Below are positions 13,649-55,814 of a stretch of DNA of 64,000 nucleotides, piece after piece. Below the pieces are notes generated by a model. That model was given only the letters and a program-made list of their open reading frames with translations. It did not search any database and was not told where the DNA came from. The stretch's first letter is position 1. Each line of letters starts with the position of its first letter. The position numbers were made by a program, and so were the translations under genes. The DNA is from an uncultured bacterium (GTDB taxonomy: Bacteria > Babelota > Babeliae > Babelales > Vermiphilaceae): the NCBI GenBank assembly GCA_963695335.1, contig OY968764.1:1302685-1366684 (forward strand), read 5' to 3'.

Positions 13649-13672
13649 AATGTTTTTATTTACGCGCTTTAA

Positions 13673-13699
13673 TCCTTCAACAAGTTCAGGATGAGCGCG
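13673..13699 (-). repeat. Family-B palindromic repeat (empty, near-cognate IS110 target)
   Basis: Minus strand cgcgctcatcCTgaacttgttgaagga. Confidence 0.8.
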
Positions 13700-42754: not shown

Positions 42755-42792
42755 CCGCTCGTCCTGAGCCTGTCGAAGGATATCTTCGAGCG
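42755..42792 (+). repeat. Family-B palindromic repeat (empty IS110 target with a perfect left-target match)
   Basis: ccgctcgtcCTgagcctgtcgaaggatatcttcgagcg. Confidence 0.8.
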
Positions 42793-42876
42793 TCTTAAAA
42801 CGAGGTCTCCAATAGAATGCTATGATTATTGGCGTTTAATCAATACTTTATTTTGCAAAAATAGTCGCACTCATTT

Positions 42877-47726: not shown

Positions 47727-47783
47727 CCCCAATTTCCATTTCATTCCAATCGGGGTCCTCATTGAAGGGAACTGAAAATGGGA
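47727..47783. repeat. Family-C palindromic repeat
   Basis: ccccaatttccatttcattccaatcggggtcctcattgaagggaactgaaaatggga aligns to 206-263. Confidence 0.7.
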
Positions 47784-47809
47784 TTAAACAAACGATTGAA
47801 AGAAAAATA

Positions 47810-50800
47810 ATGAAACTCACTCTCCGTTCACCATTTTTATGGATCATCGCAACAGTGCTCTCAGGATTAATGTATTTTTTTGCATTTCATCTTTTTCCTC
47901 AAACATTTCCCATCATCAATCTTTCTATCACCATGGATCTTGAACAAGCATTGGATAAAGCTGATGATATTGCTCAAGAATACAATTTCGGCCCCGCCTT
48001 CGCCGAGGCTTCAGCGGACAGGCCCTATCAATCGGCAGCAATGTTCCATACAGATAACACGGTAAAAACATTTGTTGAACTGGAAGGTGGTGGAAGAGAT
48101 GCATTTGTTGCAATGATGGATAAACAACTGTATATGCCATACACATGGAGAGTGCGTCATTTTAAAGAACATGAAAAAAATGAAACAACGTTTATATTTA
48201 CTCCTGATGGCACATTATACGGTTTTGTGGAAACATTATCAGAAAATATTTCTGGTGCACAGCTGACTGAAAATGAGGCACGTCAAATAGCAGAAAACGA
48301 TGCTGCAACATATTGGGATATTGATTTCTCTCCATACACATTAGTTGAAACATCACAAAAATTAGAAATTGGTGGACGCCTTGATCACACATTTATTTAC
48401 GAACGAAATGATGCAAAAATCCAAGAAGGTCTTTACCGTTTAAAAATAGTCGTCAGTGGTGATAAAACAACTACACTGAATCATTTTGTTAAAATCCCCG
48501 AAGCATTCACCCGCCGCTATGCAGAAATGCGATCAGCAAATAATACTATTTCATGGGCTGCAACAATTTTCATGATTTTATTATACTTTATTGGTGGTTG
48601 TTGTTTTGGCCTTTTTTATCTGAGTAAACATCGCTGGAATATCATCAAACAACCAATGAAATGGGCTGTCTTTCTTTCTACTCTTTCTGTTCTGACATCA
48701 ATCAACCAATTACCATTTTTATGGATGCATTATCACACCGCATTATCATCATATGGTTTTTTGATGCAAATATTGCTCAATCTTCTTATCAGCTTCCTTG
48801 GATATGTCGTTATTCTAACACTCATCATTATGGCAGCTGAAGGGCTTACACGCCGTGCCTTTGGCAACCATCCACAACTCTGGTTATTAACACAACCTGA
48901 TATAAAAACATCTTATGCAATTTTTGGCAGAACATACGCTGGATATCTTCTTGTTGGTTTTAATTGCGCATTTGTTATCGGATTTTATTTCTTTTCTACT
49001 CGTTATTGGGGTTGGTGGTCACCATCAGAAATGTTGTTTGATCCCAATATATTAGCAACCTATGCTCCATGGTTTTCACCCATTGCGAAATCGCTTAATG
49101 CTGGTTTTATGGAAGAGTGTCTTTTCCGTGCAATTCCACTCGCGGGAGCTGCACTATTAGGTAACCGTTTTGGAAAAAGAAATTGGTGGATAGGCGCTGC
49201 ATTTATTTTGCAAGCAATTATCTTTGGCGCAGCTCATGCAAACTATCCAATGCAACCATCATACGCACGTCTTATTGAATTACTTGTGCCATCATTTATT
49301 TGGGGTGCAATCTATTTACGATTTGGTTTAGTTACAAATATTATCGCTCATTTTGTGTATGACGTTGTGTGGTTTTCTATACCTATTTTTGTATCGCAAA
49401 CACAATACGCTTACGCATATAAAATAACAATTATTTTTGTTACTCTGTTGCCACTTCTTTACGTGCTATATGCACGTATCAGAAAAGGTACATGGACAGA
49501 AATTTCTACTGATGCACTCAATGCAGCATGGTCACCAACCACAACTATCAAAGAAAAAATAGAACCTATCATAAGAAAAACAGAATCATATAATCTTACA
49601 AACACACTAAAAAAAATAATCATTGGACTTGGTGCTGCAGGACTCATTGCATGGATATACAACACACCATTCACGCATGATGGTGTTACTATTACATTGA
49701 ATAGAGATGATGCAATTGCAACGGCGAATGCATATTTAGAAGAAAAAAACTTTACGCCTGACACGTCCGACTCCGCCAAGGCTTCCGACTTTGCCAAGGC
49801 TTCGTCGGACAGGTCGTCGGACAGGCATTGGAAAACATTACCACTCATATTTGCAGACTATAAACTCATACCGCAGATTGCTTTGCAACACAAATTTATC
49901 TGGCAAGAAGGCACAAAAGAATTGTATCACCAACTATTAGGTAACTATTTGCATCCAGCACATTGGACAATCCGTTATGCTCAATTTGATACTGATATTA
50001 TTCAACGAGCAGAAGAATACAAAGTATTGCTCTACAATAATAAAATATGGCAATATTATCATCAACTGCCTGAATCTACTGCAGGAGCAGAACTCTCACA
50101 AGAGACAGCACGCACAATTGCTTTTGCAGCCATCCAAGAAGAACTCAATATCAATCCAAAAGAGTTAACGGAAATTTCTGCAAGAGCATCACAACTGCCT
50201 CATCGCAAAGATTGGTTATTTGTTTTTTCAGATCCAAATATTTATCCATTACCGATTGGCCAAGCACGCATTTCTGTTACTATCAGTGGTGATCAAATAA
50301 CCAATGTTCTTCGTGCAATTCATGTACCAGAAGAATGGGAACGTGCTGAACAACATAAACAAAACATGCTCAGTATTGTTCTTATTGTACTAGCACTATT
50401 ATTTATGTTTCTTATTGTGTTTGCATTCTATAAAGCATCCAAACATAACAAAACGTTTATATTTTCAAAACGATTGTTCTTTATTTTATGCGGTGTTGTA
50501 TCTGTAATATGCGTTATTGATTTGATTAACTCTTGGCAAACTGTTGTAGGTGGATTTAACACAAGCTTACCACTCACCAATCAGCTCTTTCAGACAATCA
50601 CAGGCCTCATCATCAGCTCTCTTATGAAAATAGTTGGTTATGCAGCAGTAATAAGCTATGTCATGTCACACAAAAGATCTCATCAATTACCACATACATG
50701 GCTTACCGCAATACTTGGGATATCTTCTGGACTTTTTGTATCAGGAATATATGCAACAGTACAACTGCTTGTGCCATCTCACATGCCACTTTGGCCACAT

Positions 50801-51298
50801 TATGAATCACTGAGTTATACAATGCCATTACTTGCTAGCTTAACTCATGCTATTTCATACTATACACAACTAACTATTGCATGTTCATTACTCTTTATGC
50901 TCATTGATACAGCAACCCGTCCTTCGATAGCTTCCGACTTCGCCAAGGCTTCGTCGGACACGGCAGGACGAGCGGAAGAGAAAAATTGGTTACTTTTGAC
51001 AGGATTAATGACAGTGTATGGCATGCTCGCCATTCATTTGCCATCTCTAGATATGATTGGAATATGGATTATTGCTGGCGCACTGTTTGGTTGGACATTA
51101 CTTGCAATGTATCGTTATGTCATACGATATGATTATGCACTTATTTCTGTAGCAACCAGCGGCCCTACACTATTATATATTGCACAACAAGGAATCTTTA
51201 ATGCATATCCAGGTGCGTGTATCTATGCATGTATAAATAGTATTGCTGTTATATGTGTTGCTTCTGTGTGGTATTGGTACGTTAGTAAACAAAATTAA
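47810..51298 (+). CDS. Large CPBP (Abi/CAAX) family intramembrane metalloprotease with duplicated extracytoplasmic domain
   Basis: EECLFR, FGAAH, IIAHFVYD motifs; many TM helices; contains in-frame repeat insertions. Confidence 0.88.
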   Translation: MKLTLRSPFLWIIATVLSGLMYFFAFHLFPQTFPIINLSITMDLEQALDKADDIAQEYNFGPAFAEASADRPYQSAAMFHTDNTVKTFVELEGGGRDAFVAMMDKQLYMPYTWRVRHFKEHEKNETTFIFTPDGTLYGFVETLSENISGAQLTENEARQIAENDAATYWDIDFSPYTLVETSQKLEIGGRLDHTFIYERNDAKIQEGLYRLKIVVSGDKTTTLNHFVKIPEAFTRRYAEMRSANNTISWAATIFMILLYFIGGCCFGLFYLSKHRWNIIKQPMKWAVFLSTLSVLTSINQLPFLWMHYHTALSSYGFLMQILLNLLISFLGYVVILTLIIMAAEGLTRRAFGNHPQLWLLTQPDIKTSYAIFGRTYAGYLLVGFNCAFVIGFYFFSTRYWGWWSPSEMLFDPNILATYAPWFSPIAKSLNAGFMEECLFRAIPLAGAALLGNRFGKRNWWIGAAFILQAIIFGAAHANYPMQPSYARLIELLVPSFIWGAIYLRFGLVTNIIAHFVYDVVWFSIPIFVSQTQYAYAYKITIIFVTLLPLLYVLYARIRKGTWTEISTDALNAAWSPTTTIKEKIEPIIRKTESYNLTNTLKKIIIGLGAAGLIAWIYNTPFTHDGVTITLNRDDAIATANAYLEEKNFTPDTSDSAKASDFAKASSDRSSDRHWKTLPLIFADYKLIPQIALQHKFIWQEGTKELYHQLLGNYLHPAHWTIRYAQFDTDIIQRAEEYKVLLYNNKIWQYYHQLPESTAGAELSQETARTIAFAAIQEELNINPKELTEISARASQLPHRKDWLFVFSDPNIYPLPIGQARISVTISGDQITNVLRAIHVPEEWERAEQHKQNMLSIVLIVLALLFMFLIVFAFYKASKHNKTFIFSKRLFFILCGVVSVICVIDLINSWQTVVGGFNTSLPLTNQLFQTITGLIISSLMKIVGYAAVISYVMSHKRSHQLPHTWLTAILGISSGLFVSGIYATVQLLVPSHMPLWPHYESLSYTMPLLASLTHAISYYTQLTIACSLLFMLIDTATRPSIASDFAKASSDTAGRAEEKNWLLLTGLMTVYGMLAIHLPSLDMIGIWIIAGALFGWTLLAMYRYVIRYDYALISVATSGPTLLYIAQQGIFNAYPGACIYACINSIAVICVASVWYWYVSKQN
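47993..48022 (+). repeat. Family-A 30-bp in-frame palindromic element (PAFAEASADR)
   Basis: cccgccttcgccgaggcttcagcggacagg; GC-rich island in an AT-rich gene. Confidence 0.8.
49766..49825 (+). repeat. Two nested family-A 30-bp elements, in frame
   Basis: tccgactccgccaaggct[tccgactttgccaaggcttcgtcggacagg]tcgtcggacagg. Confidence 0.9.
50920..50975 (+). repeat. Family-A 30-bp element (50933-50962) nested in a family-B repeat, in frame
   Basis: tccttcgatagct[tccgacttcgccaaggcttcgtcggacacg]gcaggacgagcgg. Confidence 0.85.
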
Positions 51299-51522
51299 TT
51301 AACGTGAGTTCGATTTAAGCACAATACTATACTTCTTAATGAATTATTCCTCTGCGCTCGCCCTGAACTTGTTGAAGGGTATCTTTGAGCGCACTCTTAA
51401 TAACAATAAAAAAACAACAAAGTTTCTATTCTTTAGTAATGATTAAAAAGAAAAATATTTTTTAATAAAAAAAGAAACCGCGCTCAAAGATATCCTTCAA
51501 CAAGTTCAGCGATTATGATCAA

Positions 51523-51528
51523 AGTCAA
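51523..51528 (-). promoter_or_regulatory. -35 box (TTGACT) of the circle-junction promoter; pairs with -10 TATGAT at 52674-52679
   Basis: Junction reads TTGACT-17 nt-TATGAT. Confidence 0.8.
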
Positions 51529-52490
51529 GTAGAATAGGCATTTTTATTAGGTGCCCACTTTCTATTTTCAGTAAGAAGAACATTAGCAAGTATAATAAAC
51601 TTGCGCATTACAGCAATTAGGGCAATCTTAGATGGTTTTCCTTCTTCACGTAATCGCTCATAAAATTTCTTAAAATCTGGATTATGTTGAACAGCTGAAA
51701 GTGTAGGCATATACAGCATTTTTCGTGGTAAGGATCTACCTTCTCTAATGATAGATTTTTTCTTATAATTACCACTTTCATTGGTGTATGGAGCTACGCC
51801 TAATAAGGCTGCAACTTGCTTATTTCCAATACTTCCTAATTCAGAAAAAAAAGCAATTAACGTTGCTGATGTTCCTTTTCCAGCACCAGGAATTGATGTG
51901 ATAATATTTTGCTTATGTTTCCAGTCATCATCATTATCAATTAATTGTTCTATTTCTTTTTCCAATTCCTTAACTTGTTCATCCATAAAATCAATATGTT
52001 GTTGAATTTTGTCTTTACAAAATTCAACTTGTGGATGAGCCAATCGTGTTTTTTCTCGACTGATCATTCCCGTCAAATCACTTTTCCTTCTTATTAAAGC
52101 TTTCAATAATTCTTCATTCTCTTTTGGCACTTTAATGCGTGTTTCCTCTGATAATTCTTTTTGTTGTGCAAACAAAGCAATCATAGATGCATCAATCTTG
52201 TCTGTTTTTGCTTTTGCTCCATCTGATGCGATAAACGACTTAATTCGTTTCGGCTCAATTAGCCATACAAAATATCCAGCATTACTTAATGTACGAATCA
52301 ATAATTTTTCGTATCCACCAGATGATTCACATACAACGCGAACAACATTGTACTCAGAAAATACATTAAGTATTTTATTGAGACCAGCGGCGCTATTTGG
52401 CGTTTTAAAATATTGATTCAATGGACGTAAAAAAACATCCAAATTATCTTTTGAAATATCGACACCAACAAATATTTCTGTTAGCTTCAT
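51525..52490 (-). CDS. IS110-family recombinase/transposase (DEDD RuvC-like plus Tnp domain)
   Basis: VGVDISKD, CESSGGY, KTDKIDA, SIPGAG, GVAPYTNESG. Confidence 0.95.
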   Translation of the reverse strand: MKLTEIFVGVDISKDNLDVFLRPLNQYFKTPNSAAGLNKILNVFSEYNVVRVVCESSGGYEKLLIRTLSNAGYFVWLIEPKRIKSFIASDGAKAKTDKIDASMIALFAQQKELSEETRIKVPKENEELLKALIRRKSDLTGMISREKTRLAHPQVEFCKDKIQQHIDFMDEQVKELEKEIEQLIDNDDDWKHKQNIITSIPGAGKGTSATLIAFFSELGSIGNKQVAALLGVAPYTNESGNYKKKSIIREGRSLPRKMLYMPTLSAVQHNPDFKKFYERLREEGKPSKIALIAVMRKFIILANVLLTENRKWAPNKNAYST

Positions 52491-52668
52491 AGTAATTCTT
52501 CCTCATAATACGAGCCTTGCGCTCAAGCGATTATTCGAATCTTCTACAAATCTGGTTGATAGCTCTTTAGCTGAAAACGGTTCTTGTAACCTAGGACGAG
52601 CACAAGACGCTATCAACCTTTTTTTATAGCCTAGTTTCCTAAACCTAAAAAACTCAATAATCTACATG
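52491..52668 (-). ncRNA. Predicted bridge RNA (5' stem-loop, target-binding loop, donor-binding loop)
   Basis: Left target guide 52593-52601, right target guide 52571-52575, left donor guide 52526-52534 and right donor guide 52502-52507 match target and donor; ends approximate. Confidence 0.85.
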
Positions 52669-52736
52669 CTTTTATCATATGAGGACGAGCGCGTAAGATT
52701 AAATGATTTTTTAATTTTTCTTAGATCGAACTCACG

Positions 52737-53903
52737 TTAATTATTAAGCAATCTATTAAAAATATTTTCTAATTCTTTAGTCGATTGCTTAATTTCAAAC
52801 TCATCTTCAACTTTTTTTCTTCCCGCCAACTCTACAGATTTCCATATTTCTGGATGACTGATAATATAATCAATTGTATGTGTTAATTCCGTTACGCTTT
52901 CTTCTGCCACTAAAAATCCAGATATTCCATCATCAATCAACTCAGATGTCCCAGCATGCCACGTGCTCACAGCAATAAGTCCCATGGCCATTGCTTCTTT
53001 TAACGCATTGGCAATACCTTCTTCATTTCCATCACTCGATTTTTTTGACGGCAACATAAAAATATGAGATTTATCTAAAATAGAAGCAACTTCTTCATGG
53101 CTTTTCCACCCACAAAATGTAACATTATCCTGAAGATGTAATTGATATACTAATAACTCCAAATACGTTCGTTCTTCACCATCACCAACAATAAAGTAAT
53201 GCACTTTAGGATATTTTCTTACAATTTCAGCAAAAGCTTTTATTGCGTCATCTATACCTTTTTTCTGGACAAGTCTACAAGTAGAAACAAAATTTATGTA
53301 ATCATCGCTTGGTTTATGACGTAATCTAAATGGAAATTGTGAACTATCGATAGCAGAATGATGTACTTCTATTTTTGATTTTTTACAACCAAGCGCAATA
53401 AGTTTTTTTTTAAAATAATCACACACAGGTAAAAAAAGATCTGCTTGTTTTAATACTTTCTTATATCTTGCTGGATTCTGCTGAAGATGTGCTGTAATAT
53501 CAGATCCTCTAATGCAAACAGCGACTTTTCTTTGCTTAAGCCATTCTGATAGACGTGGCATTTCAAAAATTTTTTGACCTAAATACCCAAATTGACAAAA
53601 AACAATATCGCATTGAGGTAATTTTGCAGGAAGATTTTTATACATAATACATTTCAATAAACCGTATTTTTCAATATTAGGATGCATACCAACTAATGAA
53701 TCTTTATGAAATGAAAAAATGGAAACATCATGTCCCCGCTCTATAAGTTCTGTCATTATATTTAAAATAAAAATTTGTGAAGGAGAAGGAAAATGCCCTA
53801 ATATAAAAAGTATGCGCAATGGTTTTTCAGCACAACTTATCGAATGGAATAAACAGATACATAATACAACACTAACTTTATATAGCAACATTCTTTTTTT
53901 CAT
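52737..53903 (-). CDS. GT4 glycosyltransferase (WcaL/AmsK-like) with signal peptide
   Basis: RGSDIT, RLVQKKG, EEGIANALKEAMAMG. Confidence 0.9.
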   Translation of the reverse strand: MKKRMLLYKVSVVLCICLFHSISCAEKPLRILFILGHFPSPSQIFILNIMTELIERGHDVSIFSFHKDSLVGMHPNIEKYGLLKCIMYKNLPAKLPQCDIVFCQFGYLGQKIFEMPRLSEWLKQRKVAVCIRGSDITAHLQQNPARYKKVLKQADLFLPVCDYFKKKLIALGCKKSKIEVHHSAIDSSQFPFRLRHKPSDDYINFVSTCRLVQKKGIDDAIKAFAEIVRKYPKVHYFIVGDGEERTYLELLVYQLHLQDNVTFCGWKSHEEVASILDKSHIFMLPSKKSSDGNEEGIANALKEAMAMGLIAVSTWHAGTSELIDDGISGFLVAEESVTELTHTIDYIISHPEIWKSVELAGRKKVEDEFEIKQSTKELENIFNRLLNN

Positions 53904-53919
53904 AAACAAATAACCATAT

Positions 53920-54843
53920 TTAAAATTGATAATCAACAATTGAATCTAATAACGCAATCAATTCATAGGCACTTTTATAACTTTTTACAATCATTAATTC
54001 ATAGTTTAATAATTTTTTTTCTATTCTTGCATCATACAAAAAACTACCCATACTAAATCCCGCTTGTTTTGCAAAATAACGTAATTGCTGTATTAATGCA
54101 TTTGGCTTATGCTTACGTAATAAAAATTTTAAAGTGTTTCTCATATGTCTTAATGCGTTAACTTCATCTTGGTTAAAAACAATCTTTTCTTCTTGAATCA
54201 TATACAAAAGTTTTTTGCATGCTAACTTGCATAAATCCTTATCAAAAGTATCATCCATATCAATTGCACAGAATCTATCTGTAATAGGATCATAACAAAG
54301 ATTTCCACAATGCCGATCTGAATTTCCTATAAACAGATCTAAAGCTACAATTTCAGGCAGTTGCGGATGCCACGTCATGTGTTCAATAATTGCTTTTGTT
54401 AATCCCTTTTCTTTAAATGTCTGTGCTTGCGCCCAAAACTGTCTAAGTCTTAATGCATTATATCTACATTTAGGTTGCTTTCTTACGGTGTCTCCTTTTG
54501 CAATCGTATGTAATGTTGCTGGCCAAAACTGCTGTATTTTCCCAGAAAACTGTTGTTTTGCTCCAATAATTTCAATCTCATGAGCAATGCCGCGCAATGT
54601 CTTTGCAACATATGCCGCTAAAGCATCACGTACAACCGACAACTGTTTTTTATAATCTTTTTTTTGTTTTATTAAATAAATTCTTCCATCAATCAATATA
54701 TAACTAATAAAACAGTTCTTGGTTTCAATTGTATTAACAATAGAAATATCTTCTCTTGCTTGATCAATTGATCTTGAAAATTTAGAAAATATAGGAAAAA
54801 TTATTATAAACGACAAAGCAACCAGCACATGTATCACGCGCAT
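53920..54843 (-). CDS. Exported atypical kinase (same family as 40895-42713)
   Basis: YLIKQK, DLFIGNSDRHCGN, AIDMD. Confidence 0.7.
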   Translation of the reverse strand: MRVIHVLVALSFIIIFPIFSKFSRSIDQAREDISIVNTIETKNCFISYILIDGRIYLIKQKKDYKKQLSVVRDALAAYVAKTLRGIAHEIEIIGAKQQFSGKIQQFWPATLHTIAKGDTVRKQPKCRYNALRLRQFWAQAQTFKEKGLTKAIIEHMTWHPQLPEIVALDLFIGNSDRHCGNLCYDPITDRFCAIDMDDTFDKDLCKLACKKLLYMIQEEKIVFNQDEVNALRHMRNTLKFLLRKHKPNALIQQLRYFAKQAGFSMGSFLYDARIEKKLLNYELMIVKSYKSAYELIALLDSIVDYQF

Positions 54844-54887
54844 TGCTACTACCTTTTTTCATTTTTTTACATTAATAAATAACAATA

Positions 54888-55814
54888 CTACTTCTTTTTT
54901 GGTCTTTTAATAATATCATTCAAAATTGATATCAATTTATATGTACTATGATAACTTTGAACAATAATATCTTTGTGTAATTCTATTTTTTTTGTAACAC
55001 CATGATTCACTTTTGAATCATCATCAACATATCCCGCTTGTTGAGCACATTGATAAAGGTGAGCTATAATCTGATCTGGATTATAATTTTGCAATAATAA
55101 TTCGAGAGTTTTTTTCATTTTTTTAAGAGCTTTTCTCTCTTTTTTACTGAATTTTTTATGATCTGATCTCATTTTTTTTAAATTTTGATATGCAAATTCA
55201 GGTAAATTACGTCTATAAATATTATCCATATCAATTGCGCAGAACTTATCTGTTTGTTCATCATAAAAAAGATTTCCACGATGACGATCACTGTTACAAA
55301 TAAACAGATCCAAAGCTATAATAATAGGGAGCTGTTTATGCCATGTCATTTGAGAAATAATATTTTCATCCAACCATCTATTAAGAACTTTTTCATCAAG
55401 ATTATTAAGATTTCTCTGTTGCAAAGATAATTGAAAATATTTATGCCCTTCCCCCAAGCTCCGGACTGTTTTCCCTGGAGCAATTGACAGTAGAGTTGCA
55501 GGACAATGATTATATATCTTTCCAGGAACATCATCATCTGGAGCAATAATCTCAACAGAATGAGCTACTCCGAGTTCTTTTGCAACATATGCCGCCAATG
55601 CATCTCGAATAACTGATATTACTGTTTTTTGACACTCTTTTTTTTGTTTAACAATATATCTCACTGCATCCATAACTATATAACTAATAAAAGCATTGGG
55701 TGATTCAAAACCACCTTCTAAAAATACTGTCCGATTCTCTGAAATATGAGGAGATGAAAACATTGCTGCATTACTTAATAAAACAATCACATAGAACATT
55801 ACTCGTGTTACCAT
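54888..55814 (-). CDS. Exported atypical kinase (same family)
   Basis: YIVKQK, DLFICNSDRHRGN, AIDMD. Confidence 0.7.
   Translation of the reverse strand: MVTRVMFYVIVLLSNAAMFSSPHISENRTVFLEGGFESPNAFISYIVMDAVRYIVKQKKECQKTVISVIRDALAAYVAKELGVAHSVEIIAPDDDVPGKIYNHCPATLLSIAPGKTVRSLGEGHKYFQLSLQQRNLNNLDEKVLNRWLDENIISQMTWHKQLPIIIALDLFICNSDRHRGNLFYDEQTDKFCAIDMDNIYRRNLPEFAYQNLKKMRSDHKKFSKKERKALKKMKKTLELLLQNYNPDQIIAHLYQCAQQAGYVDDDSKVNHGVTKKIELHKDIIVQSYHSTYKLISILNDIIKRPKKK

Follow-up and report, generated by a model that had tools for sequence, protein, structure and literature searches.

An IS110 element with a predicted bridge RNA in an abundant hairpin repeat of a Babelales genome

The window, a stretch of 64,000 nucleotides, is part of the genome of an uncultured bacterium of the order Babelales, which consists of one contig of 1.37 Mb with 35.7% GC, a small and AT-rich make-up reminiscent of Dependentiae. 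Near the end of the window an IS110 element interrupts a short repeat, and an empty, inverted copy of that repeat lies close by. This raises the question of whether the element is programmed against the repeat, as the first-pass annotation of the window proposed, and, if so, what separates occupied copies from empty ones and how the repeat itself came to be so widespread.

The element and its predicted bridge RNA

The element is flanked at each end by a CT core with no further duplication, and its subterminal inverted repeats are short (the top match is 9 of 10 nt). Its parts are as follows.

51510 to 52681, minus strand: IS110 element of 1172 bp, between two CT cores
51525 to 52490, minus strand: open reading frame of the IS110 recombinase, 321 amino acids
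51510 to 51528, minus strand: short right end, reaching 15 nt past the stop codon and containing the -35 half of the predicted junction promoter
52491 to 52681, minus strand: left end, 191 nt, predicted bridge RNA region
52554 to 52618, minus strand: predicted target-binding loop and its closing stem
52593 to 52601, minus strand: predicted left target guide, 9 of 9 nt identical to the left target and core at all three genomic copies
52571 to 52575, minus strand: predicted right target guide, complementary to the core and three further nt, 5 of 5 at two copies and 4 of 5 at the third
52526 to 52534, minus strand: predicted left donor guide, 9 of 9 nt identical to the right-end terminus and core
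52502 to 52507, minus strand: predicted right donor guide, complementary to the core and the first four nt of the left end

The recombinase has both the DEDD RuvC-like domain and the C-terminal serine domain (PF01548, 78.5 bits; PF02371, 61.1 bits) and scores 199.5 bits against NCBIfam NF033542, which has a cut-off of 140. Residues D11, E55, D97, D100 and S239 align to motifs of IS621 that we take to be catalytic. Only two solved relatives were found in the PDB at an E-value of 0.001, ISCro4 (1e-41) and IS621 (7.5e-40). The left end folds with a z-score of -5.0, none of 200 shuffles being equally stable, and compensatory change is seen in 13 of the 16 consensus pairs of the bridge RNA when 16 sequences are aligned. 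An Rfam scan of 51200-52800 rendered 13 matches, all below the gathering score and mostly miRNA models on the repeat dimer, which are attributed to chance.

All four predicted guides include the core and match the target and the circle junction at the expected places, a layout known from IS621 (PMC11208160). A junction promoter is predicted in the computed circle, where the -35 half from the right end would lie 17 nt from a -10 half at 52674-52679. At the level of sequence, the element is confirmed as an IS621-like IS110 with a predicted bridge RNA in its left end.

The genome has three copies of the element with identical bodies, here called the window copy, copy B and copy C. No circle junction was found in the assembly or in the contigs of four of seven sequencing runs, and the single flank that looked new in those contigs was the flank of copy C, so the identical copies are the sole sign of activity.

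The interrupted repeat, its copies and the nested locus

The repeat is split by the element into two parts and faces its empty twin across a spacer.

52682 to 52692, minus strand: 5' portion of the split repeat, made up of left target and CT core
51480 to 51509, minus strand: 3' part of the interrupted repeat with the second CT core
51354 to 51392, plus strand: inverted and unoccupied twin of the repeat, in which a compensatory C-G pair stands where the target has T-A
51393 to 51479, no strand: AT-rich spacer of 87 nt between the repeat arms, common to five repeat dimers of the genome

When the element is excised in silico together with one CT core, the rejoined unit of 39 nt matches 51354-51392 except at two positions, 8 and 26; two mismatches were also what the first-pass annotation had claimed. 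These two positions pair with each other in the stem of the hairpin. The unit is an imperfect hairpin of -7.0 kcal/mol when folded as DNA. The earlier description of a palindrome with a twin 90 bp away is thus right about the twin, which is inverted with the arms 87 nt apart, but the repeat is not a perfect palindrome.

All six related copies that had been listed for the window (149, about 270-286, 13673, 42755, 50964 and 51354) are present. Besides the twin they are:

149 to 286, no strand: two repeat copies facing inward, each with one mismatch to the left guide
13660 to 13698, minus strand: repeat copy with a single mismatch to the left guide, its ends approximate
42755 to 42793, plus strand: empty repeat copy with the full 11-nt target, outside open reading frames of at least 100 amino acids, end approximate
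50918 to 50975, minus strand: copy of the repeat in which a second hairpin is nested, lying in frame within an open reading frame of 1162 amino acids, ends approximate

The guide matches assigned to these copies were also correct: the 9-nt left target starts without mismatch at 42757 (+) and 50973 (-), and with one mismatch at 151 (+), 284 (-), 13696 (-) and 51356 (+). The copy at 50973 fails the right guide because GCC follows its core. The idea of empty targets in the window therefore holds for 42757, the only empty window site that matches both guides over 11 nt, but no empty window site does so over 12 nt. Five window sites contain the 12-nt target with at most one mismatch, compared with a mean of 0.13 in 100 shuffles, and one of them, 20478, has flanks that are not those of a repeat copy.

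The membrane protein of 1178 amino acids encoded at 47762-51298 (+) contains three short in-frame pieces derived from hairpin repeats, around 47999, 49775 and 50933, and repeat heads occur in other open reading frames of the genome. Palindromic elements inside Rickettsia genes are comparable. Elsewhere in the window, at 53920-55814 (-), glycosyltransferase genes flank two adjacent and related open reading frames of 307-308 amino acids, of which the first shows weak matches, below the cut-off, to HipA-like and PI3/PI4 kinase models and the second shows none.

All three copies of the element are inserted at the same base of this one repeat family, and the ends of the element occur at only these three places in the genome. 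The first-pass annotation had asked whether other copies sit in unrelated sequence, and neither of the other two does. The left 11 nt are alike at the three copies, the right flanks start with GAA, GAA and GAT, and the insertions are all intergenic by open reading frame calls (gaps of 56-236 nt). The supply of sites is large, with 72 empty copies of the 11-nt target in the genome compared with 0-1 in ten block shuffles. This places the target second among 77,164 11-mers with CT at the core position, behind the variant of the twin with 76 copies. The 12-nt form ending in GAA has 14 perfect copies, which are empty. Only six of the 72 perfect targets are deep in long open reading frames, compared with 67% of random positions, and half of them (36) are paired with an inward-facing copy no more than 250 nt away. 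The safe-harbour reading of the first-pass annotation would fit these insertion positions.

The degenerate head motif of the repeat has 236 sites in the genome, 116 of them with a short loop, and four purine/pyrimidine variants of the head account for 72, 76, 34 and 14 sites. The base that distinguishes target from twin is a stem position, which in 108 short copies is T-A in 78, C-G in 29 and unpaired in one. It is very probable that the element is a bridge-recombinase IS110, with a target loop adapted to the T-A variant of the hairpin repeat that is most abundant in the genome. The support in hand, which is computational, consists of the anatomy of the element, the guide-target and guide-donor matches, the common use of one site, the abundance of the target and the covariation among homologs described below.

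By analogy with IS621, the element would be excised as a circle, the joined ends of which would form a promoter driving both bridge RNA and recombinase. The donor loop would read the circle junction, and the target loop would read seven nucleotides, the CT and two or three more nucleotides at the top of the 5' stem of the repeat. Recombination would insert the element there in one orientation. Because the top of the 5' stem is what the target loop would read, the element would land between genes and split the hairpin.

The repeat dimer of the window is in turn enclosed by the ends of another element.

51296 to 51325, plus strand: IS982-type terminal inverted repeat, one end of the shell
52707 to 52743, minus strand: second shell end, 37 nt with 92% identity to the left end of a full IS982-type element (inverted-repeat match 52714-52743)

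The full element encodes a DDE protein of 292 amino acids (PF13612), which we presume to be of IS982 type, and is found in four near-identical copies of 970 bp at 209365, 512804, 773373 and 1275960 of the host contig (C1). Ends of the DDE element also bound short shells at C1:737777-738102 and C1:319420-319574. Since the inverted repeats match the ends of the DDE element, the empty window locus is a short non-autonomous shell containing a repeat dimer, and the IS110 is an insertion into this dimer. At C1:737976-738044, in the empty locus most similar to that of the window (93% over 200 nt), the repeat head breaks off immediately ahead of the CT core and gives way to another hairpin. This arrangement might be a nested insertion with a deletion, or a scar.

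The window copy and copy B are both in dimers of the five-member spacer sub-family, and it could be argued that the copies are not independent but represent one insertion carried in the IS982-derived shell or by gene conversion, as these two have shell and spacer type in common. However, their spacers are only 82% alike while the bodies of the elements are identical, which favours separate insertions. Their upstream flanks diverge from 12 nt outside the left core, and the flanks of copy C are unrelated beyond the repeat head. A single origin is largely refuted by this divergence of the flanks and must be considered highly improbable.

Guides and targets among the homologs

A search of 261 genomes of the order (E 1e-30) showed homologs of the element in 19, the host genome included, and a scan of metagenomes rendered nearer homologs, up to 86% identical. 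The set analysed comprises 46 loci, all with at least 39% identity, after three duplicates of L020-L022, one locus at a contig end, fragments and distant matches had been left out. Fifteen of the 46 loci, corresponding to 13 distinct elements that are 39-100% identical, are inserted in the repeat family described above, at the position seen in the window.

Base 6 of the guide equals base 6 of the target in all 15 of these loci (T/T in eight, C/C in seven, none discordant), an agreement that is inflated by shared ancestry because kin among the loci are not independent. As guide, the stretch that best matched the target was taken, a procedure biased towards agreement, and guide placement was checked against the alignment and the sequences. 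The automatic choice of guides was wrong for several loci outside the repeat family (for example in L010, L134, L141, L157, L159 and L165), and these loci were not counted. The third base after the core differs from the guide in five of the 15 loci; for L160-L162 the right guide was misplaced, although its third base equals that of the true guide. The left guide thus appears to discriminate while the right guide tolerates mismatch at its end, much as is reported for ISPpu10. One homolog with 68% identity, L153, is changed in guide and target alike, with C in each. In L134 (G156) the first 20-odd bases of the element are duplicated in tandem at the left end.

The agreement at base 6 argues in favour of the earlier claim that the twin is spared because of its C at position 6. 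The rule that occupied copies are those with GAA was less successful. It applies to two of the three genomic copies, but the third has GAT, the homolog that is 86% identical (L152) has guides as in the window element and is located in a GAG copy, and the 14 perfect 12-mers remain empty.

A wider reading is that the guides accept the whole degenerate family of about 196 sites by wobble, so that the twin would also be a target and is empty by chance. Such pairing is conceivable for all purine/pyrimidine variants, given G and U at positions 5-6 of the left guide and a U on the right, since each difference between the four variants is a potential G-T or U-G pair. ISPpu10 is reported to accept wobble at a single position on each side, left and right (bioRxiv 2026.03.19.712850), and the looseness of the third base is in line with this. 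The agreement at base 6 speaks against it, as does the observation that no guide with U is located in a C variant among the 15 loci. A limit on the case for discrimination is that the genome has only three insertions: if there were no discrimination among 199 variant sites, their all being at perfect matches would have p = 0.05. Reading of the whole family is unlikely in comparison with tuning to the T-A variant.

Another possibility, tentative but less so than wobble, is that pairing with the guides is needed but not sufficient, and that the recombinase also prefers long inverted dimers or one sub-family. Two of the three copies are in the same arm of a five-member sub-family that holds only four of 75 perfect sites. 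The excess in this sub-family has p = 0.006, or 0.025 among GAA sites, values that are post hoc with n = 3 and a test chosen after the data had been seen. For ISPpu10 a stem-loop at the target is reported to raise integration (bioRxiv 2026.03.19.712850). On the other hand, copy C falls in a repeat of another type, a nested one, and restored 80-nt targets of the homologs fold no better than controls (z < -2 in 8 of 34 compared with 12 of 60; ten of 44 loci were left out because of missing ends or short flanks). The folding therefore gives no support for a general hairpin rule.

Targeting of repeats, as judged from insertion sites, is common but not universal in this IS110 clade. The homolog in genome G091 targets the opposite strand of the window repeat, those in G068 and G034 are in or adjoining CGTC-like hairpins, and the homolog in G172 is with others in a third GC-rich hairpin, these assignments being made by eye. 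Empty predicted targets number 8 in G210, 8 in G091, 15 in G068, 9 in G034 and 8 in G172. They are few in four of the nine hosts checked (G098, 2; G249, 1; G187, 2; G197, 0). In a tree of 36 recombinases the label of same repeat and same position needs five changes, and of 200 bootstrap trees 0% recover it as a single clade, but strongly supported branches force just one change. A distant IS110 with 30% identity, L016 (G018:C14:3276-7175), is apparently inside an NTS-like hairpin, as judged by eye.

Origin of the repeat and comparison with known systems

The repeat of the window is not a REP of RAYT type. The three Y1_Tnp matches of the genome, considered as possible RAYT partners, are near-identical IS200-type elements with tnpA only (C1:369218, 574578 and 1166633) and no repeat in their flanks, and the GTAG tag is absent from the repeat head. 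The repeat is instead tied to a GIY-YIG gene. One of four GIY-YIG matches in the genome, a gene for 95 amino acids at C1:565524-565808, is bracketed by copies of the repeat. The nearest solved relatives of this protein are UPF0213 proteins, which presumably points away from cd10448. Two further small GIY-YIG genes (C1:205106-205318 and 895128-895328) are each directly downstream of a different GC-rich hairpin family, and the former is also preceded by a tRNA-like sequence.

The association extends beyond the host genome. Homologs of the GIY-YIG gene were found in 41 of 151 genomes of the order, and in the best 30 loci by score the hairpin is within 250 nt of the gene in 27 and brackets it, facing inward, in 14. 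Near the genes there are 53 hairpin motifs in 14.4 kb compared with 10 in 68.0 kb farther out, about a 25-fold difference in density for a motif that was set after the flanks had been inspected. Of the 39 genomes that carry the exact short repeat, 27 have the gene, compared with 14 of the 112 that lack the repeat, counts in which kin are not independent. Both GIY-YIG matches in a plasmid collection, from the alphaproteobacteria Sphingomonas and Methylobacterium, have a like hairpin on each side as seen by eye. These distributions suggest that a UPF0213-type GIY-YIG nuclease spreads or processes the repeat, which we regard as the probable explanation, at lower confidence than the tuning of the target loop. 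If the nuclease spreads the repeat, the IS110 would use a mostly intergenic supply of sites made by another element.

The opposite relation, that the IS110 itself made or spreads the repeats, has only the 9-12 nt common to repeat and guides in its favour. The repeat pattern is found in 39 of 151 genomes of the order whereas IS homologs are found in 19 of 261, and none of ten genomes of the same genus matches the window element as query, although the four that were sampled carry 18-86 repeat copies. The repeat is thus independent of the IS110, the ends of which occur only three times in the genome, and the hairpin brackets GIY-YIG genes. Repeat-rich genomes without the element refute this relation as far as draft assemblies allow, and we attach next to no probability to it.

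In the main texts searched, no description was found of this repeat family or of an IS targeting it, no account linking UPF0213 GIY-YIG genes with repeats, and none on Babeliae. CGTC-tagged repeats without a dedicated transposase have been described by Di Nocera et al. (PMC3733652), and the sequence of the window repeat is not among them in the parts covered.

Insertion of IS110 elements into extragenic palindromes is already published for IS621, ISPpu10 and ISPa11, and for the Nf1 prophage at dRS3, so the surprise for a specialist is low. The claim that IS621 targets REP sequences is borne out by its description (PMC11208160). According to the same text, IS621 and ISCro4 resemble the window element in having DEDD and serine domains, a long left and a short right end, a CT core, two guide loops and insertion into a repetitive extragenic palindrome. 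They differ in that the protein sequences are distant, the guides are not the same, and the target of IS621 is the enterobacterial REP and not a GIY-YIG-associated hairpin.

ISPpu10, ISPpu9 and ISPa11 are REP-targeting IS110/IS1111 elements of Pseudomonas (bioRxiv 2026.03.19.712850; PMC11187229), with another repeat family and another host group than the window element. The former source gives 97.1% of ISPpu10 targets as non-coding and 40.8% as paired, compared with 66 of 72 not deep in open reading frames and 36 of 72 paired for the window element. The third position of the right guide is loose in both. In ISPpu10 the stem-loop is 5' of the core, whereas the core of the window element is on top of the 5' stem with the hairpin 3' of it. 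ISPa11 is of IS1111 type with a downstream RNA (PMC11187229), unlike the window element.

The closest parallel with regard to the nuclease is in Neisseria, where the filamentous prophage Nf1/MDA with an IS110 transposase integrates at the CT of dRS3 (PMC7058167), and dRS3 overlaps NTS, the motif of SsnA (PMC11893778). In both systems the hairpin repeat used by an IS110-bearing element is linked with a small GIY-YIG nuclease. Nf1 differs in being a phage and not a bare IS, in its hairpin and in its nuclease, which is of cd10448 and not UPF0213-like. Ssn nucleases are characterised by site-specific cutting of single-stranded DNA. The Ssn gene (PMC11893778) is, like the gene in the window genome, a single-domain GIY-YIG gene of about 95 amino acids, bracketed by inverted hairpins that are also found genome-wide. 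The published degenerate SRM pattern has no matches in the genome studied here, and the nearest relatives of the gene here are UPF0213.

The locus is a clean natural case of bridge-RNA targeting, in which a single hairpin position serves 13 distinct homologs whose guides have changed to match, while related homologs are retuned to other sites, some of them in other repeat families. The homolog set provides test pairs for the wobble tolerance of the guides and for gating by target structure, and it points to a little-described repeat family linked with UPF0213-type GIY-YIG genes. A broader proposal, which is speculative and probably not correct in full, is that these bridge recombinases belong to a lineage that has followed one hairpin family over a long time. 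That family would occur across phyla and owe its spread to a GIY-YIG nuclease of UPF0213 type, different from Ssn. The guides of the lineage would follow compensatory changes in the stem base for base, insertion at the stem-loop junction would destroy the substrate of the nuclease, and long inverted dimers would be preferred through a structural gate. If this is true, one mobile element would be farming the target supply of another, and the lineage would offer natural guide-target pairs for retuning tests.
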